Virus record (IMG/VR): IMGVR_UViG_3300037504_000588
Span: 14,997-78,996 of that record
Length of the DNA stretch: 64,000 nt
Strand: one strand, 5' to 3'
Source: a virus
Positions 7,209-57,592 of this stretch are shown one piece after another. The notes below the pieces were generated by a model. It was not told the origin of the DNA, searched no databases, and worked only from the letters and a program-made list of their open reading frames with translations. Made by a program: the position numbers and the translations under genes. Every line of letters begins with the position of its first letter. Positions within the stretch are counted from its first letter, which is position 1.

Positions 7209-7241
7209 AAAAGTGGTTTCTAAATAGTTACCACTTTTTTT
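7209..7241 (+). terminator. Probable terminator hairpin
   Basis: AAAAGTGGT...ACCACTTTT stem with a T tract. Confidence 0.55.
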
Positions 7242-7252
7242 ATATTTTTTTT

Positions 7253-7313
7253 AAAAAATAATTGTAAAAATATTTTGTTTTTATATATAAAAGTATTATA
7301 TTTGTATTGTATT
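7253..7313 (+). promoter_or_regulatory. Repeated host-type (Bacteroidota sigma-A-like) promoter, copy 1
   Basis: About 60-bp element with TTTG-N19-TATATTTG; near-identical copies at 12253, 21843 and 29946. Confidence 0.8.
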
Positions 7314-7346
7314 TTAATATTTTTTAAACCTAAAAACGCAAGAATT

Positions 7347-7767: not shown

Positions 7768-8055
7768 ATGAAAAATAAAAATAACAATACAATAGAAACT
7801 GAGACCATACCGTATGATGCGATGTTAGCAGCTGATCTTTTTAAGAGTGGGAAGGCATATTATTGTCAGCATTACCCAAGCCGTGAAGAGTGGCTTATAC
7901 TTGGCATAAGTAAAGACTTTAAAAAAGTGTGTGTTGCTGGTTGGCCTCCAACAATTGCTAATGCGGAGGATTGTGAATTATGGAAACTTGCAAGGGATTT
8001 GACAGAAGATGAAATTGAATATAGACAAAAAGAATTTGGCAGCGGGTGGCTTTAG
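7768..8055 (+). CDS. Hypothetical protein (cassette-borne)
   Basis: ORF bracketed by GTTAGCAGC / GCTGCTAAC. Confidence 0.65.
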   Translation: MKNKNNNTIETETIPYDAMLAADLFKSGKAYYCQHYPSREEWLILGISKDFKKVCVAGWPPTIANAEDCELWKLARDLTEDEIEYRQKEFGSGWL

Positions 8056-8173
8056 GCTTGCTGCTAACCATTATATATAAAATCAACAACGAAATAAAAT
8101 AAATTATTAACCAACAATGCTGAATAAATATGCCGATAATGGCGTTTGATGTATTGTTATAAAAAATGTTTTT

Positions 8174-8368
8174 ATGAAAGATGTAGAGATAGTGTATTGG
8201 GGTAAAACACCTTTAACAAACATAGATGTATATATGTTAAATATAATTAATGAAGATGGAACTAAAACACCTGTTTATAGTAATGATAGGGTGTTTGAGG
8301 ATGTACGGTTGATGTGTGATTATGAAACGGCAACAGCTAAAAAAGTAGAACTGTTAAATGTTTTATAA
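8174..8368 (+). CDS. Hypothetical protein (cassette-borne)
   Basis: Stop codon lies within TTTTATAAC. Confidence 0.6.
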   Translation: MKDVEIVYWGKTPLTNIDVYMLNIINEDGTKTPVYSNDRVFEDVRLMCDYETATAKKVELLNVL

Positions 8369-8479
8369 CGGTAAGCATAAGGCAAGTGCCTAAACGAATA
8401 TTGAATAAATGGACTACAACGTTGAGCGTATGCGCCTGTTGGCGTTTTGGTTGAAATTACAAACCTTAAAAACAGACAA

Positions 8480-9028
8480 ATGATAAACGAGATACGAAAC
8501 GACAAAAGTAAGATGGCTATGCAGTATGACACATTGTTATGCCCCGTTATTTTAGACGCCTGCTGTGGTAGTAGAATGTTTTGGTTTGACAAGAAGAATC
8601 CAAATTGTTTATTCATAGATAAACGAAGCGAGACAGTAACAGCAAAAGACAGCAGTCAAAAAAGTGGTTTAAGAACTATTGAAGTAAAACCTGACTTGAT
8701 TGCGGACTTTACAGATATGCCTTTTGAAGATGAGCAATTTGCAATGGTGGTATTTGACCCACCACATCTAAAAACCCTTGGACAAAATAGCTGGATGGCT
8801 AAGAAGTATGGAAGATTGCCTAATGATTGGGAATATATGATTGCAAAGGGTTTTGATGAATGTATGCGAGTGTTGAAACCAGAGGGAACTTTAATCTTCA
8901 AATGGAATGAGCACGAAATTAAATCAAAGCAGGTTTTAGACCTAATACCTTATAAGCCACTTTTTGGACATACAACAGGGAGACAATCTAAAACAATTTG
9001 GATGGCTTTTATGAAGGGTGTCTCCTAA
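8480..9028 (+). CDS. SAM-dependent (amino) DNA methyltransferase
   Basis: ILDACCGSRMFW SAM motif, VFDPPH catalytic motif, RVLKPEGTLIFKW; start uncertain. Confidence 0.85.
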   Translation: MINEIRNDKSKMAMQYDTLLCPVILDACCGSRMFWFDKKNPNCLFIDKRSETVTAKDSSQKSGLRTIEVKPDLIADFTDMPFEDEQFAMVVFDPPHLKTLGQNSWMAKKYGRLPNDWEYMIAKGFDECMRVLKPEGTLIFKWNEHEIKSKQVLDLIPYKPLFGHTTGRQSKTIWMAFMKGVS

Positions 9029-9067
9029 GTAATTTTTATTGTACCTATTTAGGTGTTATTTTTTACG

Positions 9068-9504
9068 AATTATTAACCATAAAATTTTATAAAATGAAAA
9101 CACATATTATCCCAAGAAGAAAAGGAAAAACAACCGAACTTATAAAAAAATCCGCTGAAACTGGTGACTATATAGTTTGCCATAAACTTGATGAAGCGAA
9201 TAGAATACAAGTAGAGGCTCAAGAAATGGGACTACAAATACCACTACCAATCACTTATGATGAATTTTTGAAGAAACGATATTACGGAAAAGATATCAGC
9301 GGTTTTTTGATTGATAATGCAGATATGTTCTTGCAATCACTTTCAAATGTGCCAATAAACAGTATTACAGTTAGCTCTTAATTGCGCACAACTATTATAT
9401 ATAAAACCAACAATGTAAACATTTGAATATGAATGTAAAACACAAATCAACTTTAGCAAATTTCAAAACAATTATTAACCATAAAATTTTATAAAATGAA
9501 AACA
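9068..9504 (+). repeat. 35-bp perfect direct repeat (9068-9102, 9470-9504) covering two translation starts
   Basis: AATTATTAACCATAAAATTTTATAAAATGAAAACA occurs twice. Confidence 0.9.
9094..9381 (+). CDS. Small P-loop-like protein
   Basis: PRRKGKTT and hhhD (FLIDNAD); ATG at 9094. Confidence 0.55.
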   Translation: MKTHIIPRRKGKTTELIKKSAETGDYIVCHKLDEANRIQVEAQEMGLQIPLPITYDEFLKKRYYGKDISGFLIDNADMFLQSLSNVPINSITVSS

Positions 9505-9690
9505 ATAAAAACAAACGATACAACAACAATTAAACTTCACAAACTTCCAACTTCAACTCTTAAAGAAATAATAAGTTTGCAAGAAAACACCCCAGAAAGT
9601 AATATTATATGTAGAGAATGTTACGAAGAGCTTCTCAAAAGAGGAAAAATTAAACCAAAATTTGAAACTAAAAATGTAAAAAAACGATAA
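9496..9690 (+). CDS. Hypothetical protein
   Basis: Starts within the second copy of the 35-bp repeat. Confidence 0.5.
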   Translation: MKTIKTNDTTTIKLHKLPTSTLKEIISLQENTPESNIICRECYEELLKRGKIKPKFETKNVKKR

Positions 9691-9710
9691 AATTTAAAAA
9701 CAAAGATAAA

Positions 9711-10058
9711 ATGATAACAACCAATATAAAAATAAAAAATGAACCTGAATTCCATCAAAACACATCTATTGAATTTACAGATTCAGGAATGATACTAAGG
9801 GTTTCAATTAATATCCCCTATTCTTTAATTAAATATCTACCATATTGCAATGTATCAAAAGGTAAAGAATTGTGGGTTTATGCTTTAAGCAAAGAAATTA
9901 AATCTGGTGCAATTAAAAAAGAAAGAGTTCAGCAATTACATAATCATTTAATTAAAAATTGTATGATCATTATAAGAGAAGCAAAAAAGAAACACCTCAA
10001 TGATCAAATTTTAAAAATTAAAAACAGACAACCTAAACAATTAACTTTTTTTAATTAA
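9711..10058 (+). CDS. Hypothetical protein
   Basis: ORF track. Confidence 0.5.
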   Translation: MITTNIKIKNEPEFHQNTSIEFTDSGMILRVSINIPYSLIKYLPYCNVSKGKELWVYALSKEIKSGAIKKERVQQLHNHLIKNCMIIIREAKKKHLNDQILKIKNRQPKQLTFFN

Positions 10059-10356
10059 TTTTACATTAAAATCTTAAATATAAGAGGGTTTTTGTGAATA
10101 ATAGTATAAAGTTATTATTTAACTTTAATCTTTCTTATATACCTTTAAAAACCATTAAAAATTTAACAATTATGGCAACACAAAATCTATTTGAAAAGAT
10201 TGTAAAAGACTACCAAGAAGAAATTTTTAAATCATCCGGGAAACAAATAACAAGAGAGCAAGCCATTGAAAGTCTCAAAAATCATGGAATATATAATCCT
10301 AACTGTGATAATATTAATAAAATTGAAAAAAACAACATCATAAAATAAGATTATAT

Positions 10357-10950: not shown

Positions 10951-12261
10951 ATGTATATATTAAGAGATTATCAAAAAGAAGCAAGTAGAAAAGGATATGA
11001 ATATCTCATCTCTAATAATAAAAAGAATGGATTAATTATTATTCCAACCGGAGGAGGAAAAAGCCTCATCATAGCAGATATAGCTTCTAAATTAAATGAA
11101 AAAATAATAGTTTTACAGCCTTCTAAAGAACTTTTAGAGCAGAACTATAATAAATACCTCTCTTATGGTAACGATGCCACTATCTATTCAGCATCTAAGA
11201 AATCTAAAGAGATAGGAGAAGTTACTTTTGCAACAATTGGAAGTATATATAAAAATCCTGAATTATTTTCTCATATTCCTTATATAATATGGGATGAATG
11301 TCATATAGGATCACCCAATGAAAAGAGTATGCATAAACAATTTTTTAACAATATTGGAGTTAAACTATTAGGAATGACAGCTACTCCATTTAGATTGAAA
11401 AGTTATAATTATCCTGAACCTCATTCTAAGCTTTGTTTTCTAACACGTACACGGCCTAAGTTTTTCCATGATGTTGTACATATAACTCAAATACAAGAGT
11501 TAATAAATGAAGGGTTTTGGAGTAAATTAATATATAAAAAACATGAATTTGATACTTCTAATTTAAAGGTTAATTCAACTGGTGCAAATTATAAAGAATC
11601 TTCTATAAAGGAAGAAATATCAAAACAAAACATCATAGAAGAAGTTGTAAAAGAGGCAAAGCAATTAAAAGATCGTAAACATATTCTTATATTCTTACCA
11701 GATATTAATTCAGCTTTGCAATGCTCAAGAAGGTTAAATTGTAAAACCTTAACAAGTGAAACAAAAAAGAAAGAAAGAGATAAAATAATTGAAGATTTTA
11801 AAAGTGGAAAAGAAAAATTTTTGTGTAATGTTGAAATAATGGGTGTTGGGTTTGATTTTCCTTCATTAGATTGTATTATTGATGCCTATCCTACAATGTC
11901 TTTTGCAAGATATTATCAACGTATTGGAAGACTTGTAAGGCCTGAATCAACAAAGAAAGATGCTTTATATGTTGACATGGTGGAAAACAGTAAATTGTTT
12001 GGCAAGGTAGAAGATTTTGTCATAGAGAATGTAAATGGATGGTATGGATTTAATGGCAAGAAGATAATCACAAATGTCCCTTTGGTAAAGAAAGAAGAAG
12101 TTCCAGATTTAGATAATATAGAAATAGGTTTTGGAAAGTTTAAAGGAACAAAATTTAAAAATCTTCCAAATTGGTATCTAAACTGGGTCAAGGATAATGT
12201 AAAAAAGAATCAATATAATCAATCGTTGTTTCAATACATTAATATTATTTTTAAAAAATAA
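10951..12261 (+). CDS. Superfamily 2 helicase (RadD/YejH-like)
   Basis: PTGGGKS, DECH, TATP, QRIGR, C-terminal FGKFKG domain. Confidence 0.9.
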   Translation: MYILRDYQKEASRKGYEYLISNNKKNGLIIIPTGGGKSLIIADIASKLNEKIIVLQPSKELLEQNYNKYLSYGNDATIYSASKKSKEIGEVTFATIGSIYKNPELFSHIPYIIWDECHIGSPNEKSMHKQFFNNIGVKLLGMTATPFRLKSYNYPEPHSKLCFLTRTRPKFFHDVVHITQIQELINEGFWSKLIYKKHEFDTSNLKVNSTGANYKESSIKEEISKQNIIEEVVKEAKQLKDRKHILIFLPDINSALQCSRRLNCKTLTSETKKKERDKIIEDFKSGKEKFLCNVEIMGVGFDFPSLDCIIDAYPTMSFARYYQRIGRLVRPESTKKDALYVDMVENSKLFGKVEDFVIENVNGWYGFNGKKIITNVPLVKKEEVPDLDNIEIGFGKFKGTKFKNLPNWYLNWVKDNVKKNQYNQSLFQYINIIFKK

Positions 12262-12313
12262 TTGTAAAAATATTTTGTTTTTATATAAAAAAGTATTATA
12301 TTTGTATTGTATT
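12253..12313 (+). promoter_or_regulatory. Repeated host-type promoter, copy 2
   Basis: Same element as at 7253. Confidence 0.8.
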
Positions 12314-12342
12314 TATTTTTTTAACCTAAAAACAAAAAAATT

Positions 12343-12501
12343 ATGACACGTACACAATTAGTATCAGAGATGGCAAAAGCATTAAAAGACAATTATGATT
12401 GTATAATGAAAATAGATGCTATCAAATGGTTAAAAGACCTTTATCCAAATACAAGTTTAACGCTAAAAATTAACGCTTATCATTTAGCTTATGAAGACTA
12501 A
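12343..12501 (+). CDS. Small hypothetical early protein (52 aa; absent from the ORF track)
   Basis: ATG follows the AACCTAAAAAC leader behind promoter copy 2. Confidence 0.55.
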   Translation: MTRTQLVSEMAKALKDNYDCIMKIDAIKWLKDLYPNTSLTLKINAYHLAYED

Positions 12502-12635
12502 AAAGAAACTAATAGACATACCAGAAAAAAATCCTCGAAGATTTACAAATAAAAGCGGTTAAAGCAAAGAAACTTCTCAAAAATTATATTGAGGGCTTAC
12601 TTGTAAAAGACGTGCGAGGCAAAAGAATTAACTAA
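12491..12635 (+). pseudogene. Ribbon-helix-helix-like regulator frameshifted in an A7 run
   Basis: Removing one A gives MKTKKKLIDIPEKILEDLQIKAVKAKKLLKNYIEGLLVKDV. Confidence 0.5.
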
Positions 12636-12675
12636 CTTTTTTTAATTAATTTTACATTTACAAAACTAAATTAGA

Positions 12676-13224
12676 ATGAAAGTATTAATAGCTTGTGAAT
12701 ATAGCGGAACAGTTAGAGAGGCATTTTCCAAATTAGGACATGACGCTTGGAGCTGCGATATATTAGAAACTGAAATACCTGGCAATCATTACAAGGGTGA
12801 TGTTAAGGAAATTCTTTGCGATGGTTGGGATTTAATGATAGCACATCCACCCTGCACTCATTTAGCCGTAAGCGGTGCAAGATGGTTTAAGTACAAACAG
12901 AAAGAGCAGGCAGAAGCGTTGGAGTTTGTTCGGTTGCTTTTAGACGCACCTATTGAACAGGTAGCACTTGAAAATCCAATAAGCATTATTAGCAGCCAAA
13001 TAAGAAAGCCAGATCAGATAATACAGCCCTGGCAATTTGGACACGGTGAAACGAAGGCAACCTGTTTATGGCTGCAAAACTTACCGAAACTGCATCCGAC
13101 AAATATTGTAGAGGGTAGGGAGAAAAGAATTTGGAAAATGCCACCTACCCCTGATAGATGGAAAGAACGAAGTCGAACATTTGAAGGAATTGCACAAGCT
13201 ATGGCAACTCAATGGGGCGTTTGA
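12676..13224 (+). CDS. Short DNA cytosine-C5 methyltransferase-like protein
   Basis: VLIACEYSG motif I, HPPCT catalytic PC, ENP. Confidence 0.85.
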   Translation: MKVLIACEYSGTVREAFSKLGHDAWSCDILETEIPGNHYKGDVKEILCDGWDLMIAHPPCTHLAVSGARWFKYKQKEQAEALEFVRLLLDAPIEQVALENPISIISSQIRKPDQIIQPWQFGHGETKATCLWLQNLPKLHPTNIVEGREKRIWKMPPTPDRWKERSRTFEGIAQAMATQWGV

Positions 13225-13458
13225 TAGAAGTACAGACGTAGCCATATTATGCACAAACGTGCCGACTGTATGTTGTCGGTTTTTATGCGATTTTAAAACC
13301 CAAATATTATAATATTATGAGCTCACATGAATTATTTAAGAAACATTTTGGTAACCAGATAGCGGTTGACTTGAAACACCCTAACATTGAAAATTTTTTT
13401 GAAGAACTAAACGAAGAATGCTTGCAGGAAGATAAGCATAAAAAATGCAATATACAGC

Positions 13459-13680
13459 ATGTTAGCAGCCGTGTTTTTTTTTGACCATTTTTTACCGAAA
13501 GTCACCAAGCTAACTTTGATTGAAAAATTAGTGCTAAAATTTAAGAAGAAACTCCTTTATAGAGACGAACTGGAATTAATTACCATCGTCTATAAAAAAT
13601 GGAGAGGTAAAACCTACGTACTTGATAGTTTTTATAATCCACCCGATCATTTTAATTGCAGGTGTTTTTTACGAATTTAA
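13459..13680 (+). CDS. Hypothetical protein (cassette-borne)
   Basis: ORF track; ends in an HFNCRC motif. Confidence 0.45.
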   Translation: MLAAVFFFDHFLPKVTKLTLIEKLVLKFKKKLLYRDELELITIVYKKWRGKTYVLDSFYNPPDHFNCRCFLRI

Positions 13681-13692
13681 AAATGATAACAG

Positions 13693-13924
13693 TATGAAAA
13701 ATTTAATAAAAGAACTAAACAATCTAAGACCAACAAAAGAACAAGTAAAAGATAAACCTGCTTACTATGCTTTTGGTTATGTAGATGCTATAAATGCTGC
13801 AATAGAGTTAGTAAAAAATAACGAAGTGGCGGTTTGCGAAAAATGCACACACTATAATAAAGAACAAAAGCCTGAAATATGCAGAAGGTGCTTTAGTAAT
13901 TCACATTTTATTGAGCAAACTTAA
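13693..13924 (+). CDS. Hypothetical protein with C-terminal Cys cluster
   Basis: MKNLIKEL... CEKC...CRRC; start approximate. Confidence 0.5.
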
Positions 13925-13962
13925 TGCTAACGGGATGCGGCTAAAATTTTAAAATAGATACA

Positions 13963-14205
13963 ATGAGGATTACACGCACACATTCGATTAAAAGCAAATA
14001 CTTAGCAATGATTTATGACGCATTGTTATATGTTGTATTTGCTGCTTTTGAATTTATACACTACCAGCATTATAAGCAAACTTGGAACGGTAAGAAACGT
14101 TTAAAAACAATACAAATTACAGGAATAAGAAGTGCTTTATGTGATGATGTTAGCCAACGAATCAGAATAAAGTTTTACTGGAAGGTAGGCAAATATTACA
14201 TATAA
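13963..14205 (+). CDS. Hypothetical protein (cassette-borne)
   Basis: Stop codon lies within CATATAAC. Confidence 0.5.
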   Translation: MRITRTHSIKSKYLAMIYDALLYVVFAAFEFIHYQHYKQTWNGKKRLKTIQITGIRSALCDDVSQRIRIKFYWKVGKYYI

Positions 14206-14225
14206 CGGTATAAAGACTAAAATAA

Positions 14226-14576
14226 ATGGGTGGAAATAACGATTATTTAAGCAGAAAAGAGTCATGCAATATACACGGTGTTAGGGTTAGTACCTACATA
14301 ATTTGCTCGGCAATACATTTTGTAAATAACAAGAAATACCCACACCAACCAAAGAATATAAAGACAGGGATAGTAGTTGCAGGACGTAGACACCATAATG
14401 TATTTACAAGTATGAGTGCGTTGGGTGTTGACCATAAAGACTATGATGCAGTAGTGCAAGGGTTTTTAACTAATGATGATAGGTTTGTTGACCGTGAAGA
14501 GGGTGGGCGCATTGCCTACGAAGCACGGCAGATTAATAAGCTAACAAAAAGGTTGTTTAGTGAGGATTTGTATTAA
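14226..14576 (+). CDS. Conserved-looking phage hypothetical protein
   Basis: IICSAI...GRRHH...QGFLTNDDRFVDREE...LFSEDLY pattern. Confidence 0.65.
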   Translation: MGGNNDYLSRKESCNIHGVRVSTYIICSAIHFVNNKKYPHQPKNIKTGIVVAGRRHHNVFTSMSALGVDHKDYDAVVQGFLTNDDRFVDREEGGRIAYEARQINKLTKRLFSEDLY

Positions 14577-14642
14577 CCATAACGAATGGGTATAAGATGT
14601 AGTGATAGCGACCCGTAGGGTGCATTTTATACCGTGTTATCT
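14577..14642. other. attC-like recombination site (best example)
   Basis: CCATAAC-5nt-GGTATAAGATGTA ... TGCATTTTATACC-GT-GTTATCT. Confidence 0.7.
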
Positions 14643-14702
14643 ACTGGCACGGTAAATACAGTAGAATGTTAATTAAAAGTACTAACGTAATAATTTATAA
14701 AA

Positions 14703-15494
14703 ATGTGGGATGGACAATATGCTTTTGAAAAAAGCAAAATAATACAAGGTGACTGCCTTGAAAAAATGAAACTAATACCTGATGGAAGTGTTGATATGAT
14801 ACTTGCGGATTTACCTTATGGAACGACTGCTTGTAAATGGGACAGTATTATTCCCTTGGATTTGCTTTGGAAAGAGTACGAGAGGATTGTCAAAGAAAAT
14901 GGAGTTATATGCTTAACTGCAAGCCAACCATTTACAACAAAACTTATTGCAAGCAATTACGGTATGTTTAAGTATGAATTTATTTGGAATAAAGGCAAAA
15001 GCTCAAACTTTATGCTTGCAAAAAAGCAAATACTTAAAATGCATGAACAAATATTAGTGTTCTATCGTAAGCAACCATTCTTTAACCCACCAAAAATAAA
15101 AAGGTGTGAAAAAGATAAACGACCAGCAAATGTAAACAACATTAAGGTTGTTGAGGTTACTGGACAAAAAAGAATAGTTGTTGAATGTAAAAGTAATGAA
15201 AAATTAGAAGGTAGTGTATTTGAACTTAGAGATAGAGAGTATGGCTTGCACCCAACACAGAAGCCAACAAGACTCTTTGAAAAGATGATAAAGACTTACA
15301 CAAACGAAGGCGACATAGTACTTGATAATGTTGCAGGAAGTGGAACAACAGGAGAAGCCTGTATAAACCTAAACAGAGACTTTATACTAATTGAAAAAGA
15401 ACCTAATTATTACGAAGTAATAAAAGAGAGGGTGGGGAAGATTTTTAAAAATTATGGGCTTGACCTACAATCTTTATTAAATGAGCAAATGTAG
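14703..15494 (+). CDS. N4/N6 DNA methyltransferase (beta class)
   Basis: GDCLE, DLPY, HPTQKP, VLDNVAGSGTT. Confidence 0.93.
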   Translation: MWDGQYAFEKSKIIQGDCLEKMKLIPDGSVDMILADLPYGTTACKWDSIIPLDLLWKEYERIVKENGVICLTASQPFTTKLIASNYGMFKYEFIWNKGKSSNFMLAKKQILKMHEQILVFYRKQPFFNPPKIKRCEKDKRPANVNNIKVVEVTGQKRIVVECKSNEKLEGSVFELRDREYGLHPTQKPTRLFEKMIKTYTNEGDIVLDNVAGSGTTGEACINLNRDFILIEKEPNYYEVIKERVGKIFKNYGLDLQSLLNEQM

Positions 15495-15658
15495 TGCTTG
15501 TGGGTAACGGTAACTTGTAAGGTGTCGTGGCTGCCTTAATCAAAGCCACACAATTTCAAATTTAAAATAAAATTAGATATGACTACAAAAAATTCAAAAA
15601 CTACTGAAATCTATACACAAGTAAGCACTAATGTATTACATAAACTACCATTAGCATT

Positions 15659-16192
15659 ATGATAACAGCATATACAGACGGTTCAGCAAGTGTAAAATCT
15701 ATGAAAGGGGGATGTGGTTCTTGGATTAAATATAAAGACAGCAAAGAACATTTCATCTCCAAAGGATTCTACCCAACCAAAACGGGACGTATGGAATTAA
15801 TGGCAGTCATTTTAACCCTACAATCTATAAAAGACAAAAGTGAAACTGTATTAATATACAGTGATAGTAAATATGTTGTGAATACAGTAATGCAAGGATG
15901 GTTGGATAAATGGGAAAGAGAATTCTGGCAAAACAATAAAAATACTGATATTTGTAAGGTTTTAAAAGAAGAATTATTTAAATTTACCTTATCAAACGGA
16001 AAAGTCATATTAAAGCATATAAAAGGACACCAGGATAATCTTCAAGATGAACATATTTATGGTAATAATGTAGCTGATGCATTGGCAGATTTGCATAATT
16101 TCACAGAATTTGAAAAGGATTTAGAAGTAACCAGAGAAGAAATAAATGAAAGTGAGTTAAAATTTTATAATAAAGAAAATGGACAAAAGTAA
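15659..16192 (+). CDS. rnhA: Ribonuclease HI
   Basis: YTDGS, RMELMA, YSDSKY, KGH, NNVADALA. Confidence 0.92.
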   Translation: MITAYTDGSASVKSMKGGCGSWIKYKDSKEHFISKGFYPTKTGRMELMAVILTLQSIKDKSETVLIYSDSKYVVNTVMQGWLDKWEREFWQNNKNTDICKVLKEELFKFTLSNGKVILKHIKGHQDNLQDEHIYGNNVADALADLHNFTEFEKDLEVTREEINESELKFYNKENGQK

Positions 16193-16373
16193 AGAATACG
16201 TAAAGATGTGCCAAGAAGCACAAGAGTTACAGGAAATATTTGATAATGGTGGATGTATTGAAAATGCAACTCATAGTGCCGTCTGGCTTCCACGTCAAGA
16301 TCAATTACAAGAAATGTTAAACGATGAAGGTTTATATGATTTTATAGGTGGTTTAAATTTAAATTGGAGGTGA
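16179..16373 (+). CDS. Hypothetical protein
   Basis: YVKMC...WLPRQDQLQEM. Confidence 0.5.
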   Translation: MDKSKEYVKMCQEAQELQEIFDNGGCIENATHSAVWLPRQDQLQEMLNDEGLYDFIGGLNLNWR

Positions 16374-16523
16374 TAATGATAAAGAAATAAATGGTGAATT
16401 GATGTTAGCTCTGCAGTATTTTTTTATATTCTCCTGATTGTATATTTCAGGAACATAAAGCAAACAATGAGGAATGGTATGGTAAGAAATTATTAAAACA
16501 AATAAGAAAAGAATAAAAAAACA

Positions 16524-18044
16524 ATGAAAGATTCGAAATATCAATTAGCAATATACGATGAATACGATAACACAAATAACAATATCTGTATAGAGGCGAC
16601 AGCAGGTTCTGGAAAGACAACTACGATTTTAAACCTCCTCAAAAGAACACCTCCATACAAGAAAGTTATATTTTGCGCTTTCAATAAATCAATACAAGAG
16701 GAGTTATCCTCACGAGTACCTGATCAGGTCAAAGTATCAACAATACACTCCCTGGCTTATTCTATACTTAGATATAACATTAAGGCAAACTTTAAACTAA
16801 CAGAATACAAGAATTATCAACTCGCTTTAAAGTTAGTTAAGAAGAAATTCAAAAAGGATTCATTAAAACAATCATATCTATTCACTATAAGCAACATAGT
16901 AGATTTATATAGGATGAATCTTTGTAAAAACAAAGAGGAATTAATTACAATATTAGACCAAAGAACGATAGATTACAGCAAGGGAGAATTAGAAGATGCA
17001 TTGAAATTAATAAAATACCTTGAAACCTATAATAAAGAAAACCACGACACCTTCCTTATTGATTTTACAGATATGTTGTGGTTAGTTAAAGAATTGGTTC
17101 CAGAGCATAAATTCCCAAGATACGATGTAGTGATGGTAGATGAGGGGCAAGATTTGAATTTACTGCAACACCACATAATAAGTAATATAGTAAAACCAAG
17201 TGGCAGAATAATAGCCGTGGGGGATTCACAACAATCAATTTACAGTTTCATGGGCTCATCACCAGAGGCTTTTAATAAATTAAAAGAAAAACCCAAAACA
17301 ACATCTCTACCTTTATCTGTAACTTATAGGTGTTCAAAGAAAATAGTAGAAGAAGCACAGAAAGTATTCCCGGATAAGATAGAATATTTTGAGGAGGCAA
17401 GTGAAGGTATAGTAAGAAAAGGCTCACTGAACGAATTAAAAGAGGGAGATTTTTTATTATGTAGAAACAACCTCCCTTTAATGGAAGCCTTTATAGACTT
17501 ACTAACACAAGGAAAGAAAGCACATATAATGGGTAAAGATTTTTCAAAATCACTACTTAGAATTATAAGAAAGGTAGAATCTTCAGGTAAAGAACAAGCA
17601 AATGAAGTATTTAAAAAGATGTTAAATGAAAAGTGGGAACAGCTTAAAGAAAAAGGTGTTCATAATATATCAAACAATGCATCATATATAACACTTAAAG
17701 AAAATATAGAGATAGTTAAGATATTGGCTAATGCTTACGGTGGTTATGAAAATCTTGAAAGTAAGATGGATGAAATATTCACAGACGACCAAGAAGGAAT
17801 TACGTTATCTACAATACACAAATCAAAAGGACTTGAGAGTGAAAGAGTGTTCTTCTACATGCCAGAATTACTTCCAAGTAAGTATGCTAAAACAGATTTA
17901 GAATTATTTGCAGAAAAATGTCTTGAGTTTGTAGCAATAACAAGAGCAAAGAAAGAGCTTGTTTATGTAAAAGCTATAACTAATAGAAACGAAGTAAAAT
18001 CTAAAGAAAAATTTGAAGAAAACATTAAAGATGCTGTTATTTAA
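16524..18044 (+). CDS. UvrD/Rep-family SF1 helicase
   Basis: ATAGSGKT, DEGQD, GDSQQSIY, STIHKSKGLE, VAITRA. Confidence 0.92.
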   Translation: MKDSKYQLAIYDEYDNTNNNICIEATAGSGKTTTILNLLKRTPPYKKVIFCAFNKSIQEELSSRVPDQVKVSTIHSLAYSILRYNIKANFKLTEYKNYQLALKLVKKKFKKDSLKQSYLFTISNIVDLYRMNLCKNKEELITILDQRTIDYSKGELEDALKLIKYLETYNKENHDTFLIDFTDMLWLVKELVPEHKFPRYDVVMVDEGQDLNLLQHHIISNIVKPSGRIIAVGDSQQSIYSFMGSSPEAFNKLKEKPKTTSLPLSVTYRCSKKIVEEAQKVFPDKIEYFEEASEGIVRKGSLNELKEGDFLLCRNNLPLMEAFIDLLTQGKKAHIMGKDFSKSLLRIIRKVESSGKEQANEVFKKMLNEKWEQLKEKGVHNISNNASYITLKENIEIVKILANAYGGYENLESKMDEIFTDDQEGITLSTIHKSKGLESERVFFYMPELLPSKYAKTDLELFAEKCLEFVAITRAKKELVYVKAITNRNEVKSKEKFEENIKDAVI

Positions 18045-21784: not shown

Positions 21785-21842
21785 TTTTTAACATTATCTA
21801 ATTATCAATCAATAATTTATAAATTTTTTTTATATTTTTTTT

Positions 21843-21894
21843 AAAAATAATTGCAAAAATATTTTGTTTTTATATAAAAAAGTATTATATTTAT
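21843..21894 (+). promoter_or_regulatory. Repeated host-type promoter, copy 3 (variant)
   Basis: Same element, ending TATATTTA instead of TATATTTG. Confidence 0.65.
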
Positions 21895-22485
21895 ATGGTA
21901 GATAATTTTGATTTGATTAAGCCAATGTTAAAATTTGAATCGGAAGATGATTTTTACTTCATTCAAATTTTACAAAGGAAGAAAGATAACCCTAATGGGT
22001 GTAATGGAAGTAGTAATAGTGCCAGGTTAATAAAAGCATATTACATCAACTCAATAGAACATTTGGAAAGTTTAAAAGATGAGATGGTATTTTTTGCCAA
22101 TCATTTTAACTCAAGAGTTGGAATAAACCTAAATAAAAGGAGTTATGAAAAAACGGCTTTTAATACTTTGAAAAAAGTTGCAGAAGTGATGCACAATAAG
22201 AATTTTAAAATGGTAAGAAGAGCATGGAATACCTCTTGCGGTGTGCATAATGGTGGCGATAAAATATGGTTGTTAGATATTGATGTTAAAGACGCAGACT
22301 ATATAAAAAATATAAAGGAATTTGTGCAAAATCAACAACCCAAAAGGGATAAGATATTAGGATTAATTCCTTCAAAAAGTGGATTTCATTTAATTACAAA
22401 GGGGTTTGATTTGAGAGCTTTTAAAAAAGAATACCCAGAGATTGAAATACATAAAAACAATCCAACGAACTTATATATTCCATAA
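21895..22485 (+). CDS. Hypothetical protein with AEP/PrimPol-like motifs
   Basis: WLLDID and SKSGFHLI motifs. Confidence 0.45.
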   Translation: MVDNFDLIKPMLKFESEDDFYFIQILQRKKDNPNGCNGSSNSARLIKAYYINSIEHLESLKDEMVFFANHFNSRVGINLNKRSYEKTAFNTLKKVAEVMHNKNFKMVRRAWNTSCGVHNGGDKIWLLDIDVKDADYIKNIKEFVQNQQPKRDKILGLIPSKSGFHLITKGFDLRAFKKEYPEIEIHKNNPTNLYIP

Positions 22486-22746: not shown

Positions 22747-22959
22747 GTTATAAATCTGTAAAATTATGGATAAACCAACAATTAAGGATTTGCAAAGGTG
22801 GTTAAAATATAATATAGATGAATGTATTCGCTTTAGAAAAAAAGCGGGTGGGGAGGAAAGATATGAAGACGCAATGGAATTGAAACATATGGAGAATACT
22901 TATAAAAAAGTATGGTTAAAATTAGAAAGAATGCAGGAGTAATTTTATTGTTTTATAAC
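22747..22959 (+). mobile_element. Single integron-like cassette carrying a 58-aa ORF (22766-22942)
   Basis: GTTATAAATCTGTAAAATT / AATTTTATTGTTTTATAAC inverted ends (16/19). Confidence 0.65.
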
Positions 22960-29776: not shown

Positions 29777-29951
29777 CGGAGATCATCTAAATAATGTGAT
29801 TCAAGAAGAGTGTAATACAGAAAAGCAAAGAAAAAAAGCTTTAAAGGTATTAAACAAATTAAAAGAGAAAAGAAAAGGGAAAAAGTTTGTGTTGATACCT
29901 GTAAAGCACGCTTATAATGTTCCAACTTGGATAGAGAAGGAAGTTAAATAA
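29769..29951 (+). CDS. Small basic hypothetical protein
   Basis: ORF overlaps the upstream stop. Confidence 0.45.
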   Translation: MGSGDHLNNVIQEECNTEKQRKKALKVLNKLKEKRKGKKFVLIPVKHAYNVPTWIEKEVK

Positions 29952-30003
29952 TTGTAAAAATATTTTGTTTTTATATAAAAAAGTATTATATTTGTATTGT
30001 ATT
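29946..30003 (+). promoter_or_regulatory. Repeated host-type promoter, copy 4
   Basis: Same element as at 12253. Confidence 0.8.
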
Positions 30004-30030
30004 TAATTATTAACCTAAAAATTTAGCGAT

Positions 30031-31263
30031 ATGAAAACAAAAAAAGAACAATTAGCCGGAACATATCTTAAATATAATAATAGAATTACTAAAAATGTTT
30101 TTGATAAAGTGATAGAAAAGTTAGAACAGATAGGGTTTAGTTATTCTCTAAAAAGAGAAAAAAGTATGAATAATTCTGGTTTTAATGGAAGCTATGAGCA
30201 GTTTAGTGACTCTAATGGGTGTTTTTTTGGGGGATATTTGGTTATAAGTCCAGATAGGTATCCTGATGAATACTATGTAGATAATCATAGTAGCTCTGTA
30301 ACTAAAGAGGTTACAGTAGAAGACATACTGGGGATACAGTTAATACCAGGAGAGGTGTATTATACAAGTGGGAAATATGGAGCAGCTCCAATTATATTTA
30401 GGTATGATGAAATAAATGGTTACCTTGCAGTGTATGGTAACCATATAATAAAAACATACTATTACTCAAATGATTTGTTCCATAAAGATCACATAAATCT
30501 CTTTTCTTACTTCTTCAAAATAGACAAATCATTGGAAGTAAGACTTGCTACCCAAGAAGAAAAAAGATGGTTAGAAACCTGTGAGAAAGCAGGGAAGTTT
30601 GTACCTAAAGAAACAATAAGCGAATTGAAAGGTTTTGAGATTGGCAAGTGGTATACACATAAAAATAAATCTATGTTAGTCTGTTATAAAGGAGAAGGTG
30701 AAGGATATGGCTTTTTGAATAATATGTGGGGTTCTTATTGGTGTATTACAAAAAGAGAAGATTGGAAGTTAGCTACAGAAGAAGAAGTAAGGGATGCACT
30801 TCTGGAATTTGCAAAGAAGAACTACCCTAAAGGAACGGAGTATGTTTCTATAAGTACCTCGCTAACTTATACAAGTCAAGGTGGTTTTAAATATGATGAT
30901 GGGCAGATAATGGAAGGTAGACCAGATAATCCACGTGTATGCTCTATTTATAAATATGGAAAATGGGCTAAAATAATATCTAAACCAAAAGAGAAAGCAA
31001 TAGATTTATCATGTAGATGCGTAACAGGAACATACAAGGTAGAGGAACCATCTTTAGGTGAATTTAAGAGGCTGTGGAAGGAAGATATGGAAGCAAGAAG
31101 TTATCGTCCTTTTATATTACCAAAAAAAGCTACCACGATTTCATTAGGAACAGCTCAATTGAGCAAAAAGGAACCATTAAAACCTTCTGATTTTATAAAG
31201 TTACCAGAGAAGAAGGAAGAAAAGAAAAAAGCAAGAATAAAAATAACAATAAACAAGTATTAA
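30031..31263 (+). CDS. Mosaic hypothetical early protein
   Basis: Repeated RLATxEE motifs; behind promoter copy 4. Confidence 0.65.
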   Translation: MKTKKEQLAGTYLKYNNRITKNVFDKVIEKLEQIGFSYSLKREKSMNNSGFNGSYEQFSDSNGCFFGGYLVISPDRYPDEYYVDNHSSSVTKEVTVEDILGIQLIPGEVYYTSGKYGAAPIIFRYDEINGYLAVYGNHIIKTYYYSNDLFHKDHINLFSYFFKIDKSLEVRLATQEEKRWLETCEKAGKFVPKETISELKGFEIGKWYTHKNKSMLVCYKGEGEGYGFLNNMWGSYWCITKREDWKLATEEEVRDALLEFAKKNYPKGTEYVSISTSLTYTSQGGFKYDDGQIMEGRPDNPRVCSIYKYGKWAKIISKPKEKAIDLSCRCVTGTYKVEEPSLGEFKRLWKEDMEARSYRPFILPKKATTISLGTAQLSKKEPLKPSDFIKLPEKKEEKKKARIKITINKY

Positions 31264-37757: not shown

Positions 37758-38693
37758 ATGTTATTTACTTCAACACAAATTCAAGATATTTTATATATAA
37801 TTGAAAAGAATCATCTTATCTATGCAGGTGTTTCAATAGGATTTGATGTGTTAAGTGAATACGATAAGCGCATCTTGAAAGATTCTGGGATAGATATAGA
37901 TAAGATTAGTAGAGATTGGACTCCCTTTGAACAGAGCTTCTATTTTGGAAGATTAAGTCAATTATTAAACGATCAACAAGTCAAGAAGCTAAAATACAAT
38001 GATTTTGTAAAATACCTTAAAAAGGGACAATACATTCCACTTAATAATCTTGAAAGAGACATGTTGAGCATTGCAAAGCAACGTTCATATAGACATATTA
38101 AGAACTTAGGAAAAAATATTGGAGAAGATGTTAATGGAATGGTGTTTGAAGAAGATAAAAAGTTGAGAATGCGCAGAGAAAAGGTTATAGGAAAAGAGTT
38201 AGAAAGAGGTATTCAGGAACGCAACTCACTTTCTACTATAGTCAGAGAAATAGGAAAGAAAACAGGAGATTGGCAACGTAACTTGGGACGTATTGTAGAC
38301 ACTGAATTTAATACAGTAATGCAAGAAGGGCGTGCATCTCAAATATTAAGAGAGGGTGGAGAAGAAGCAAGAGTTTACAAGACAGTCTATCCTGGAGCTT
38401 GTAGGCATTGTATTAGATTGTATCTGACAGGAGGTATTGGAAGTAAGCCAAAAGTCTTTTTATTAAGAGAGCTTATTGACAATGGTTCTAATATAGGGAG
38501 AAAGGTTGCAGAATGGAAGCCTGTTGTGGAGAGTACTCATCCTCACTGTAGGTGCAATCTATACCATTTAGAAGAAGGGAAGGAGTGGAATGAAGAAACA
38601 GGAAGGTTTGAATATCCAGAAAAATATGAAACACATATAGAAAGAAAAAGTAAGGTTAGGGTAGCGGTAGGAGATAAAGAGTTTTTTGTTTAA
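37758..38693 (+). CDS. Head morphogenesis protein (MuF/SPP1 gp7-like)
   Basis: RIVDTE, ACRHC, HPHCRC. Confidence 0.8.
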   Translation: MLFTSTQIQDILYIIEKNHLIYAGVSIGFDVLSEYDKRILKDSGIDIDKISRDWTPFEQSFYFGRLSQLLNDQQVKKLKYNDFVKYLKKGQYIPLNNLERDMLSIAKQRSYRHIKNLGKNIGEDVNGMVFEEDKKLRMRREKVIGKELERGIQERNSLSTIVREIGKKTGDWQRNLGRIVDTEFNTVMQEGRASQILREGGEEARVYKTVYPGACRHCIRLYLTGGIGSKPKVFLLRELIDNGSNIGRKVAEWKPVVESTHPHCRCNLYHLEEGKEWNEETGRFEYPEKYETHIERKSKVRVAVGDKEFFV

Positions 38694-38707
38694 AGAATTA
38701 AATAAAT

Positions 38708-39001
38708 ATGAAGGAACTAACAGAAGAGCATCTTATTGACTGGTGGTTAAATAAATACCACAACACATCTCTAAAAAAAATAAGAGAAGAGCATCCAGAA
38801 TGGGGGGATCATAATCCAGAATATACATCTCATATATTCTATGATGCATATCCTGTTACGCAAGAACAACATGATGAGTGGTGCGAATGGGCTAAAAAAG
38901 AAGTAAAGAAATATTTTAAACTATCTAAAATAGGTTTAAACAAATCTTTTGGCTTTATATATCTTAATACATCACCTAAAGTAATGAAATTAAAAATATA
39001 G
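38708..39001 (+). CDS. Hypothetical protein
   Basis: ORF track. Confidence 0.55.
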   Translation: MKELTEEHLIDWWLNKYHNTSLKKIREEHPEWGDHNPEYTSHIFYDAYPVTQEQHDEWCEWAKKEVKKYFKLSKIGLNKSFGFIYLNTSPKVMKLKI

Positions 39002-52497: not shown

Positions 52498-54090
52498 ATG
52501 AAATATCTTTTAAATATACTATTATTATTAATAATACCTCTATTGTTGCAAGGACAGAAGTATTATGTAACCGATTCATCAAGAACTTATTATATAACCG
52601 ATTCATCAGTTACATATTATATATATTATGATTTACCTGGAGCTGCTTTAATGCATTTAAACGGAAATGTTTCTACGATTAACAATAAAATTGACACCGT
52701 CTTCGATGAAAACAATCACTATAACGCTATTCAAACTGACACCTCAAAGTCTCCTTCTTTAGTAGATGGAAGCTGGCAATTTGATGGTATTGATGATTAT
52801 GTTGAAGTGGCTGATAACAATAATTTAGATTTACAAAATAATTTTACTGTCAGTGCATGGGTCAACGCTAACGGTATATCAGGAGCGCCTCAAGGCATTT
52901 TGTCTAAAGGTAATTACTCATTAAAAGAGTATGATGATGATTATATTTTTGAAGTTTTAGGAGACGGGACTACATGGAGTAAGTCAGGTGACGTAGGTAA
53001 TACCCCTTTTGGTTTGGCTGCATACGATGGTAAATTATATATAGCATGTCGATATAGTGACGATGTTTACGTATTCGACGGTACTTCCTGGAGCAAATCA
53101 GGTAATGTAGGTGATGAACCTTTTGGTTTAGCCGTCTACGACAGTAAATTATATACAGTATGTCAATATAGTGACGATGTCTACGTATTTGACGGAACCT
53201 CCTGGAGTAAATCAGGCGACGTAGGTAATGACCCTCGTGGTTTAGCTGTATATGATGGTAATTTATATGTAGCATGTTTTGGTAGTGATGACATTTACGT
53301 ATTTGACGGTACTTCATGGAGTAAATCAGGTAACGTAGGTACTTCCCCTCGTGGTTTGGCTGCATATGGTGGTAAATTATATACAGCATGTGCAGGTAGT
53401 AATGATGTCTACGTATTTGATGGAACTACATGGACTAAATCAGGTGACGTAGGTGATACCCCTCTTGGATTAGCCGTCTACAATGGCAAATTATACGTAA
53501 CCAATGCAGGCAGCAATGACATTTATGTATTTGATGGTACTTCCTGGACAAAATCAGGTGACGTAGGTAATGCCCCTTTTGGATTAGCCGTCTACAATGG
53601 CAAATTATACGTAACATGTGTAATCAGCAATGACATTTATGTATTCGACGGAACCTCCTGGACAAAATCAGGTAATGTAGGTGATTTTCCTCGTGGTTCG
53701 ACTACATATGATGGTAAATTATATGTAACATGTTCAGGTAGTGACGATGTCTCCGTATTTAGTACAGGAGAGAGTTTATGGGCAAGTAAAGGTACTGGAT
53801 ACGAACAATTAATAGGAGTTGTGACAGGCGATGAAATTAAATTATATGTCAATGGAGAGGAAAAAGCATCAACTGCACACTCTTTAACATTTGATAATAA
53901 TGATAACTCGTTGTTGATAGGTAAAAGTTATGGTTCTTCACAGTCAGGGCTAACTGGAGGTAATAGTGAAGTATTCAACGGCTCAATAGACGAAGTAATA
54001 ATTTTTGATCGTGCTTTAATTAAGAATGAGGTTCAAGAATTATATAACTCTTGCGATACAACAGGAGGAGTATTAAATTGTAATTATTAA
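52498..54090 (+). CDS. Signal-peptide LamG-domain protein with an inserted 7-blade beta-propeller
   Basis: FDGIDDYV, FTVSAWV, LYVNG, FNGSIDEV; seven 38-aa repeats. Confidence 0.8.
   Translation: MKYLLNILLLLIIPLLLQGQKYYVTDSSRTYYITDSSVTYYIYYDLPGAALMHLNGNVSTINNKIDTVFDENNHYNAIQTDTSKSPSLVDGSWQFDGIDDYVEVADNNNLDLQNNFTVSAWVNANGISGAPQGILSKGNYSLKEYDDDYIFEVLGDGTTWSKSGDVGNTPFGLAAYDGKLYIACRYSDDVYVFDGTSWSKSGNVGDEPFGLAVYDSKLYTVCQYSDDVYVFDGTSWSKSGDVGNDPRGLAVYDGNLYVACFGSDDIYVFDGTSWSKSGNVGTSPRGLAAYGGKLYTACAGSNDVYVFDGTTWTKSGDVGDTPLGLAVYNGKLYVTNAGSNDIYVFDGTSWTKSGDVGNAPFGLAVYNGKLYVTCVISNDIYVFDGTSWTKSGNVGDFPRGSTTYDGKLYVTCSGSDDVSVFSTGESLWASKGTGYEQLIGVVTGDEIKLYVNGEEKASTAHSLTFDNNDNSLLIGKSYGSSQSGLTGGNSEVFNGSIDEVIIFDRALIKNEVQELYNSCDTTGGVLNCNY
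52963..53760 (+). repeat. 7 x 114-bp coding tandem repeat
   Basis: DGTxWxKSGxVGxxPxGLAxYxGKLY...DVYVF unit. Confidence 0.95.
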
Positions 54091-56518: not shown

Positions 56519-57592
56519 ATGATGAAAAAATATTTGATCATATTATTGTTAATTGTTGGGTATGTAAGTATTAATGCACAAGATCAGGGCGTATTGTCGT
56601 TAAGTCAACTGTCAAGTGCAAATGCAACAGATGCTTATTATGTCTCAACTACTGATAGTGGAGATTTTCACGTTCGTTGGTCAACTTTATACAATGATGT
56701 ATATAATTATTACCCTGATAGATTGACTGGATTAGATACTGTAGACAATAATTATTATCTTATAGTTAATAAAGACAGTGTTGCATATAAAATAAAATGG
56801 AGTGTTTTCTTAGATTCACTTAATGTAGATGTTTATGATAGCGTGAGAGGTATAGTGAATGATACTGCGAATGTATTAAGAATAGAATGGAGAGTTGATA
56901 TAAATGACAGTTTAGGCAGATTTTGGGATTCAGTAGTGGTGGAAGGTTATGTCAACGATACTCTTAATTATTACATTGATTCAGTATCCATTATTGACAC
57001 TATTAATTCAATAATTAATGATAGTTTGGACAGATTTTGGGATTCGGTAGAAGTTAAAAATTACGTAAACGATACTATTAATTATTACATTGATTCAACC
57101 GCAACAATCGACACAATTAATTCCTTGATAAATGACAGCCTATCTACCTATTATGATTCAACAGAGGTAAGAAATCACGTAAACGATACTCTTAATTATT
57201 ACATTGATTCAGCTTCTATAATTGATACTATTAATTCAATCGTTAACAGCAAAATATATTTAAATAAACCTTTTTCAACATATACGTCTAATTCTGTAAC
57301 AATTAGTTGTGATAGCTCGGGATATAGCGAGATTGATATAAGTGGTGACTTAACGATTAATTTCAACCCTCTACCTTCTGCTGGAGAAATGTCGTCCTGG
57401 ACAATAATGATAAATGGGGATGCGACAGCAAGGGACTTGACGATACAAGAATCAGGAACAGCAATTGATTCATTATATTGGAGCAACGCTAATGAATTAG
57501 ATAGTATTCCTGCGAATGATACAATTGTCGTAGGTGCTAACATTAATAATTCAGGGGTATGGTTTATGAATTATTTAAAAAGAGGAAATTAA
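56519..57592 (+). CDS. Signal-peptide protein with 23 D-S/T-hydrophobic sequons
   Basis: MMKKYLIILLLIVGYVSINAQ; three 38-aa repeats. Confidence 0.7.
   Translation: MMKKYLIILLLIVGYVSINAQDQGVLSLSQLSSANATDAYYVSTTDSGDFHVRWSTLYNDVYNYYPDRLTGLDTVDNNYYLIVNKDSVAYKIKWSVFLDSLNVDVYDSVRGIVNDTANVLRIEWRVDINDSLGRFWDSVVVEGYVNDTLNYYIDSVSIIDTINSIINDSLDRFWDSVEVKNYVNDTINYYIDSTATIDTINSLINDSLSTYYDSTEVRNHVNDTLNYYIDSASIIDTINSIVNSKIYLNKPFSTYTSNSVTISCDSSGYSEIDISGDLTINFNPLPSAGEMSSWTIMINGDATARDLTIQESGTAIDSLYWSNANELDSIPANDTIVVGANINNSGVWFMNYLKRGN
56903..57244 (+). repeat. 3 x 114-bp coding tandem repeat
   Basis: NDSL...DS...VNDT.NYYIDS...IDTINS unit. Confidence 0.9.

Follow-up and report, generated by a model that had tools for sequence, protein, structure and literature searches.

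A putative recombinase-less array of integron-like gene cassettes in the genome of a probable Bacteroidota phage

Integrons are the textbook gene-collecting device of bacteria, and only recently have phages been reported to carry stray clusters of their attC sites. Qi, Rajabal, Ghaly, Tetu and Gillings (2023, Front Microbiol 14:1091391; PMC9892861) recognised 17 such clusters in phages with IntegronFinder, all of them without an integrase; these are known as CALINs (clusters of attC sites lacking integron integrases). One of them lies in Polaribacter phage P12002L and carries methyltransferases, and its site P12002L_attC1 was called an attC by IntegronFinder (PMC9892861). Another point of comparison is offered by the PeSL motifs of T4-type phages, which are repeated intergenic stem-loops around accessory genes for which mini-circles have been reported (Arbiol et al. 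2010, PMC2839356; Comeau et al. 2014, PMC4122927). The subject here is the region 13252-15508 of a 64,000-nt stretch of viral DNA, called the window throughout, which comprises bases 14997-78996 of the 78,996-nt IMG/VR virus record IMGVR_UViG_3300037504_000588. The region is probably a recombinase-less array of three, perhaps four, mobile cassettes that belongs to an integron-like system of Bacteroidota phages. Arrays of this kind are known in outline as phage CALINs. The parts of the array are as follows.

13252-13258, + strand: left edge of the array, with CACAAAC as its box and G as the next base, directly after the phrog_757 methyltransferase gene
13259-13460, + strand: long site J0, with an inner stem formed by 13266-13273 and 13450-13457
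13461-13931, + strand: unit 1, a doubtful cassette, with ends GTTAGCA / TGCTAAC and open reading frames (ORFs) 13459-13680 and 13694-13924
13932-14024, + strand: site J1, between units 1 and 2, with boxes TGCTAAC (then G) and GTTATAT
14025-14206, + strand: body of cassette unit 2, with 18-nt paired ends (16/18) and ORF 13963-14205
14207-14279, + strand: site J2, between units 2 and 3, with boxes ATATAAC (then G) and GTTAGGG
14280-14583, + strand: body of cassette unit 3, with ends that pair 12/14 and ORF 14226-14576
14584-14635, + strand: site J3, the type member, consisting of G, AATG, stem 14589-14601, loop, stem 14621-14633, then GT
14636-15508, + strand: body of cassette unit 4, with ends GTTATCTACTGGCAC / GTGCTTGTGGGTAAC and ORF 14703-15494

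A sequence-only reading of the window had proposed tandem units that begin with GTT and end, just after a stop codon, with their own reverse complement. The pairs that it quoted are present: 13461 with 13925 (7/7), 14025 with 14189 (16/18), 14280 with 14570 (12/14) and 14636 with 15494 (11/15). In order to accept them as cassette ends, it must be considered that inverted repeats could arise by chance in AT-rich DNA, aided by TAA stop codons that precede a C. Unanchored repeats of 11-12/15 between the start and end zones of genes are indeed ordinary (P 0.24-0.78), there are 226 inverted pairs within 2.8 kb, two of the right arms include or touch a stop codon, and pair 1 is only a heptamer. Shuffled controls had been named as a check by the same reading, and in contrast with the unanchored repeats, pairs anchored by GTT and AAC exceed them: in a test whose start and end zones were tuned on the quoted pairs, and for which the 80 helicase loci (37% G+C vs 31% in the window) were not used as a matched control, 6/84 genes reach at least 11/15, against 1.4-1.55 expected, and 0/300 shuffles reach 6. 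GTT is the sole outlier among the 64 anchor triplets (P 0.003; P 0.0009 with wider zones), and a scan of the window for the signature of the site family described below finds 11 matches on the + strand and two on the - strand, whereas 200 shuffles give a mean of 2.0 and none reaches 11. Chance is also opposed by the pairing controls of the whole family and by independent homology edges that fall at the same bases. The chance reading is therefore contradicted for pairs 2-4, where the proposal of non-random ends stands, and is a possible one for pair 1, which is weak; for the array as a whole it has a very small probability.

The sites between the units represent a widespread family. The loop of J3 contains two mini-hairpins and ends in a conserved 14-mer, GCGACCCGTAGGGT, which retrieved about 25 viral contigs, and with a 19-base version of the loop at least 120 metagenome stretches were seen to hold the J3 loop type. 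From the matches listed in viral and metagenome contigs, 89 distinct sites of one plan were gathered: nnYAAC, G, a spacer of 3-6 nt, a stem that covaries, a loop containing two mini-hairpins, the partner of the stem, a spacer of 2-3 nt, and GTTR. Together with about 11 further nucleotides, GTTR forms a 15-nt arm that pairs with the end of the same downstream cassette. An alignment of 61 sites shows no variation in AAC or GTT and has Y/R at position 4; in 10/12 stem pairs both members vary, and pairing holds in 92% of cells, a result matched by 0/500 shuffles and compared with 32-46% of cells in slid controls. The stems of the family hold 681 Watson-Crick pairs, 87 G.T pairs and no A.C pair, from which it follows that selection acts on the fold of a single strand, as the unequal spacers on the two sides of a site also show. 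In attC sites, which recombine as a folded single strand, the strand is chosen by asymmetries such as extrahelical bases; a bulged T is present in P12002L_attC1, whereas J3 has G.T wobbles only and no bulged base. The consensus of attC is an imperfect palindrome, R''-L''-loop-L'-R', of about 57-141 nt with cores RYYYAAC and GTTRRRY, and the outer RYY/RRY positions of the family do not follow it. Many contigs, and also Polaribacter phage P12002L, contain arrays of 3-7 consecutive cassettes, whose sites measure 39-130 nt and have a variety of loops. In addition, the published P12002L_attC1 primer matches a family-type site at 29974-30077 of the P12002L genome, where five or more sites of this kind are present together with cassettes that bear the family signature. 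Since P12002L_attC1 has the form seen in the window and was called an attC, the site family is already in print under that name.

Pairing of a cassette with its own end is a property of the family and not only of the window. The 15-nt GTTR arm meets an AAC-ended complement 100-3000 nt downstream, at 12/15 or better, in 23/75 distinct sites, compared with 2.5% of trials for foreign arms and 0/59 in the upstream direction. The complementary ends thus exceed the classical 7 bp, as the sequence-only reading had noted. The arms carry a T.T mismatch at position 10 and a G.T wobble at position 11 (left ..CTG.., right ..TTG..), and the pairing score never rises above 13 because of these two positions. 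In the window, units 2-4 all have the G.T wobble at position 11. At position 10, units 2 and 4 show the T.T mismatch and unit 3 has A-T, the form that is commonest in the family. Both mismatches of the 16/18 pair, as well as the wobbles of pairs 3 and 4, sit at these positions; the family pattern therefore explains the 16/18 of unit 2, and the pairs had been picked without knowledge of it. At its right end, unit 1 has TT at arm positions 10-11, followed by G.

The inner stems of the four window sites are of uneven quality. The inner repeats that had been pointed out, 14589-14601 / 14621-14633 and 13266-13288 / 13436-13457, are present, and J3 and J0 have inner stems of 8/8 that are better than shuffles (P 0.028 and P 0.018, respectively). 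J0 is about 200 nt long, outside the 39-130 nt usual in the family, and contains a terminator-like hairpin and most of a small ORF, 13317-13484. The inner stems of J1 (7/8, P 0.14) and J2 (6/8, P 0.44) are no better than shuffles, although the arm remnants of J2, GGTATAAAG / CAATATAC, are similar to those of J3. Folding gives a similarly divided answer to the check suggested earlier: 14565-14655 is the sole junction that folds better than shuffles, as three small hairpins, and the folds of J1, J2 and the region after 15494 do not; an RNA fold of 14570-14705 has a z of -1.2. J1 and J2 now hold the start codons of ORFs 13963 and 14226, respectively. As both lack convincing inner stems, J1 and J2 may have lost their activity, and units 2 and 3, which follow them, may be fixed.

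The boundaries of the cassettes can be read from relatives that share one cassette and nothing around it. Unit 4 is 81-86% identical in nucleotides to loci L081, L085, L120 and L324, with the identity confined to 14570-15511 of the window and with upstream and downstream flanks unrelated to it. In L081, 13/15 positions of the ends pair, and its changes from the window sequence compensate one another; the stem 14589-14601 / 14621-14633 is changed on both sides in L081 and L085. Unit 2 has 78% nucleotide homology with L338 over 14024-14209 only, from GTT to AAC; the flanking sites in L338 differ, and its ORF again begins in the loop of the upstream site. Variant contigs of two tidal-flat runs (records 6 and 10) follow the window to 13256 and then continue in unrelated sequence after ..ACAAC, at the following G, and contigs of other tidal-flat runs leave the window at 15507 and 15521. 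Among the family loci, 71/120 homology starts, some redundant copies included, lie between -5 and -2 relative to the C of YAAC and none at the GTT box. Where homology stops, it does so at 0 or +1 of the AAC that closes the cassette, i.e. at the last C or the next G. Most edges thus lie in the left YAAC box, and the hairpin therefore moves with the gene downstream of it. Identical cassettes also occur in different contexts: L104 and L380 share 763 nt at 100% identity between unrelated flanks, cut between AAC and G on both sides, and L106 and L355 likewise share a cassette at 92% identity. Since homology edges fall at the GTT and AAC boxes in unit 4, unit 2 and the variant contigs, the check that the sequence-only reading had itself proposed, on boundaries in relatives, comes out in favour of its observation. 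The indel search of family loci yielded no clean pair of occupied and empty sites. One contig of another tidal-flat run, otherwise identical, joins 13409 to 14946 and omits 1536 nt (units 1-3 and the start of the methyltransferase); this joint is away from the sites and is therefore an illegitimate deletion variant or an assembly artefact.

These edges bear on the view that the hairpins act at the RNA level, as processing or termination structures with 5'-3' stalks flanking each cistron, and that genes are exchanged by homologous recombination at conserved linkers, as for PeSL. The hairpins are intergenic and mostly on the sense strand, G.U-compatible pairs are plentiful, the leader after J3 is conserved along with the methyltransferase, and PeSL provide a precedent (PMC2839356, PMC4122927). 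However, the edges are precise to a 4-nt core, and the sequence immediately beyond it on either side is unrelated, a pattern that homologous recombination cannot produce. The arms also differ from cassette to cassette, those of units 2 and 3 lie within coding sequence, 6/22 phage cassettes are antisense, arrays of the same architecture next to integron integrases fold on the strand antisense to their genes, and there is a strong association of the arrays with a tyrosine recombinase. This explanation is accordingly improbable, if less so than chance.

With regard to the enzyme, no integrase had been seen near the array, and none is present in the entire 79-kb record: PF00589 and TIGR02249 have no match in its 78,996 nt. 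IntI is also absent from the 19 other site-bearing records. A tyrosine recombinase is present in 3/19 of these, and 3/4 of the records rated complete are without one. One locus, L095, carries a 271-aa tyrosine recombinase beside its arrays, with relatives of 35-36% identity in L114 and L361. When 80 viral loci were collected solely by homology to the L095-type recombinase, 46 of them had arrays, with 138 site links in 772 kb vs 1 in 1575 kb of control phage loci. The arrays stand directly upstream of the recombinase gene, as 100/103 sites do, and the folding strand is the sense strand of the recombinase in 15 loci vs 1. The sites of these arrays have the same plan and signature as those of the window, and L095 and L504/L114 carry both a GCGACCCGTAGGGT-type site and the recombinase. 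This short recombinase (about 265 aa) scores best on a XerA/integron-integrase model, at 171-181 bits (cut-off 220). Its match to TIGR02249 (cut-off 265) amounts to 127-156 bits and is split into two segments that leave the middle of the model uncovered. Homologs were found neither in the window record nor in P12002L nor in 3/4 complete genomes, and genome G008 has only weak matches of about 25% identity. The window array is thus at best an orphan member of a recombinase-linked system; no description of such a phage cassette system, with its link to a recombinase, was found in the literature searched. A recombinase encoded within a cassette of L127 was also considered as a candidate and discarded, being a generic Xer-like enzyme with no retrievable relatives.

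Insertion of single-strand transposons, of the IS200/IS605 or another HUH type, 3' of a YAAC target would account for YAAC at both junctions, for a hairpin at one end and for strand-specific folding. It is nevertheless a most unlikely origin, scarcely better placed than chance: no Y1 transposase (PF01797, whose controls were positive) and no resolvase is present in the 20 site-bearing records, each unit has one hairpin and the second subterminal one is absent, end-to-end pairing is not a trait of the IS200/IS605 family, and the arrays adjoin a tyrosine recombinase.

A more serious alternative is that the array is an ordinary by-product of integrons, that is, a true CALIN derived from a chromosomal integron of the host and served by host IntI. 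The search for IntI suggested by the sequence-only reading found nothing in the record, and TIGR02249 is above its cut-off (270-497 bits, full-length) in 113/401 evenly sampled Bacteroidota genomes (G025-G424); a full-length integron integrase was found in 0/14 control genomes, Bacteroides thetaiotaomicron among them. The IntI-adjacent Bacteroidota arrays have the same site plan, with a TT spacer before GTTR and an extrahelical G, and own-end pairing of 10-12 nt; moreover, a member of the family was classified as attC by IntegronFinder, and IntI1 is active on other attC sites of phages (PMC9892861). On the other hand, the ORFs of IntI arrays lie opposite the folding strand in 12/13 cassettes, whereas the longest ORF is on the folding strand in 16/22 cassettes of the phage family and in 3/3 window units. 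The T.T / G.T signature is missing from the chromosomal cassettes linked to IntI, and the phage loop 14-mer occurs in 3/401 Bacteroidota genomes vs 6 matches for the reversed control, and is so at chance level in host genomes. A scan of genome contigs with a loop 15-mer gave mostly chance matches among those listed. (A contig of Gallibacterium trehalosifermentans, represented by L151, L176, L187 and L203, holds four copies of an unrelated repeat element in which the same 15-mer, AGCGACCCGTAGGGT, lies between the arms of a GCTTGC / GCAAGC-type stem.) Finally, the phage arrays accompany a different, shorter recombinase at their 3' end, and IntI1 failed on P12002L_attC1. Service by host IntI is hence rather unlikely, although it is the most plausible of the alternatives considered. 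Recombination of the IntI type, as first written, is not supported in view of the shorter Xer/IntI-like recombinase, the IntI1 failure, the position of most edges in the left YAAC box and the genes mostly on the folding strand, the reverse of IntI-linked Bacteroidota arrays. As a whole, the original observation of integron-like cassettes with attC-like sites is confirmed, with support from own-end pairing, edges and site plan, and its interpretation is partly supported.

The integron-like reading suggests the following mechanism. Each junction would be one recombination site on the coding strand, composed of the end of the upstream cassette, a hairpin, and the arm that pairs with the end of the downstream cassette. 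In a circular cassette the two ends and the one hairpin would form a single long imperfect hairpin, according to the attC logic of integrons. The short recombinase or, less likely, a host integron integrase would cut the folded coding strand between AA and C, and cassettes would move as circles. For the window array the enzyme may be supplied in trans, or it may be encoded in the missing quarter of the phage genome.

Several points weigh against this reading. Pair 1 is the heptamer only (7/7), with P about 0.25-0.3, and 2/4 window sites, J1 and J2, lack credible inner stems. In 6/22 family cassettes the longest ORF is on the opposite strand, and the left edge between unit 2 and L338 lies in the GTT box and not in the YAAC box. 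Neither a circular cassette nor an excision joint was seen in assembled contigs. No site-specific recombinase of any known type was found in the 79-kb record, which is 75% complete according to CheckV. The connection of recombinase and arrays is an association in gene neighbourhoods and not an assay, and IntI1 recombined five phage attC sites but not P12002L_attC1, the sole failure of six (PMC9892861).

Whether the phages maintain a system of their own, separate from stray pieces of bacterial integrons, is an evenly balanced question. A separate system would be marked by co-directional arrays whose folding strand is the coding one, a mismatch pair that is conserved in a 15-bp outer stem, gene starts that often lie in the loop of a site, and a recombinase of about 265 aa, Xer/IntI-like, at the 3' end. 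In such a system, unrelated Bacteroidota phages would share one pool of cassettes, which includes methyltransferases, HNH genes and TIR-like genes among others, and orphan arrays would be serviced in trans during co-infection. The data point to cassette exchange maintained by phages, with exact edges, identical cassettes across contexts and a candidate recombinase of their own, and the site family was not found in sampled host chromosomes. The cargo is suggestive of counter-defence and accessory genes. Methyltransferases recur among the cassettes, and the methyltransferase cargo is the only protein common to six site-bearing phage genomes. If true, this would provide a mechanism for the spread of such genes, e.g. 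orphan methyltransferases, between unrelated phages, and both the sites and the candidate enzyme are at hand for direct testing.

The cargo of the window array includes one gene of assigned function and several small ones. The ORF of unit 4 encodes an N6/N4 DNA methyltransferase (PF01555, E 1e-32). The product of unit 3 has 116 aa and belongs to phrog_839, of unknown function, with relatives in Sphingomonas phage PAU, Tenacibaculum phage pT24 and T4-like Acinetobacter phages; as a query it returned no related viral locus. Unit 2 encodes 80 aa with one hydrophobic helix, and the ORFs of unit 1 have no Pfam or PHROG match. Two genes end with tandem in-frame stops, TAA TGC TAA at 13922-13930 and TAA CCA TAA at 14574-14582, and the second TAA of each belongs to a ..TAAC box. 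The inverted pair 14420-14434 / 15242-15256 (GTTGGGTGTTGACCA / TGGCTTGCACCCAAC) has the full family signature and lies within two coding regions, across a cassette edge; it is probably due to chance, because its right arm encodes the conserved methyltransferase motif LHPTQ. Other features of the window, within and outside the array, are these.

7824-8068, + strand: further cassette candidate, with ends GTTAGCAGCTGATCT / AGGCTTGCTGCTAAC around ORF 7768-8055
12676-13224, + strand: first methyltransferase gene, phrog_757, immediately 5' of the array
13261-13280: terminator-like hairpin match, inside site J0
16524-18044, + strand: UvrD-type helicase, without an intein in the window copy
22747-22959, + strand: further single cassette candidate, around ORF 22766-22942

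The candidate at 7824-8068 has the full CTG/TTG signature, with 6/6 core pairs and 3/4 outer pairs, and its next base is C and not G. That at 22747-22959 has 12 Watson-Crick pairs and one G.T of 15, followed by G, and its CTG/TTG motif is one base off. Close to the former, 8156-8369 is another cassette-like unit with GTT...AAC paired ends, and the tails after 8056 and 9382 are near-identical; the sequence TTTTATAACG flanks the latter (at 22944) and recurs at 8354.

All genes of the window are on the + strand, and its G+C content is 31%. The order around the array is methyltransferase (12676-13224), terminator-like hairpin, small ORFs, phrog_839 protein, N6/N4 DNA methyltransferase, RNase H and UvrD-type helicase. 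Among the sequencing runs searched, the record is present only in tidal-flat metagenomes. No close relative of the whole phage was found: the helicase query matched nothing in viral contigs, and an alignment-based helicase search returned relatives at 50% identity or less that share just RNase H and helicase with the region. Judged by the helicase protein, the isolates closest to it are phages of Chryseobacterium, Bacteroides and Flavobacterium (32-40% identity), and one uncultured fecal phage record stands above them at 45%. Many of the UvrD-type helicase relatives (P0002, P0027, P0044, P0060 and others) are 780-845 aa long with intein and homing-endonuclease domains, neither of which is in the window copy. 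A 76-nt intergenic element is present in four copies (7239-7314, 12239-12314, 21828-21903 and 29929-30004; 76-96% alike), each with TTTG, 19 nt, then TATATTTG, and each ahead of a gene block; the block that starts at 12343 encloses 13252-15508. The spaced TTTG and TATATTTG motifs of these repeats are presumably the housekeeping promoter form of Bacteroidota. From this promoter type and the nearest isolate phages, the host is probably a Bacteroidota bacterium. No tRNAs were found, and Rfam gave no credible match within 12000-17000. Elsewhere, bases 8611-10092 of the record, 5' of the window start, contain further methyltransferase-like reading frames, several of them overlapping, that resemble P12002L 38118-38816, and long arrays of 114-nt tandem repeats (copies 62-79% alike) lie inside structural-region genes at 52945-53814, 56900-57246 and 57721-58590.

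Compared with the systems described so far, the pdif modules of Acinetobacter plasmids, reportedly described by Blackwell and Hall in 2017, are similar in that genes lie between inversely oriented sites with no dedicated recombinase nearby and presumably depend on Xer-type enzymes in trans. By description, however, a pdif site is a double-stranded XerC/XerD site of 28 bp, and it has neither an inner hairpin nor the signature of a folded strand. The IS200/IS605 elements differ in the Y1 transposase PF01797, absent from the 20 records, and in the one hairpin per unit seen here. The likeness to PeSL lies in repeated stem-loops on either side of small accessory genes, in variable regions of phage genomes, with a proposed role in moving these genes. 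However, PeSL are promoter and terminator motifs with presumed homologous recombination, whereas the phage family has exact 4-nt-core edges without flanking homology, cassette-specific arms, strand-specific folding and a tyrosine recombinase, and no promoter consensus is tied to its sites; the conserved promoter repeats of host type in the window are located away from them. The phage CALINs are closer: they share with the window attC-like arrays in phages (virulent ones in the published cases) without an integrase and a DNA methyltransferase cargo. A CALIN has at least two attC sites within a few kb and no intI, and the window has this layout, with four consecutive attC-like sites and no integrase; two of these sites have decayed inner stems. 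A phage-specific site family, 15-nt own-end arms with T.T / G.T, exact edges between phages, genes on the folding strand and a linked short recombinase are not part of that description (PMC9892861). Integrons and the phage family are alike in the succession of R'' box YAAC, spacer, L stem, variable loop, L stem, spacer and R' box GTTR, in one-strand folding, in one site per cassette whose start pairs with its own end, in edges within the AAC/GTT core, and in arrays beside a tyrosine recombinase. The phage units are discrete, with core edges and own-end pairing, as in integron gene cassettes. A complete integron, in which an intI gene (for an IntI with its specific insertion) adjoins attI and the array and a Pc promoter is present, is not found in the window record, which is without IntI and in which no attI or Pc was recognised (neither was searched for). 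The arrangement of the enzyme is also different: the integron integrase is divergent at the head of its array, and the short phage recombinase stands at the 3' end of a co-directional one.

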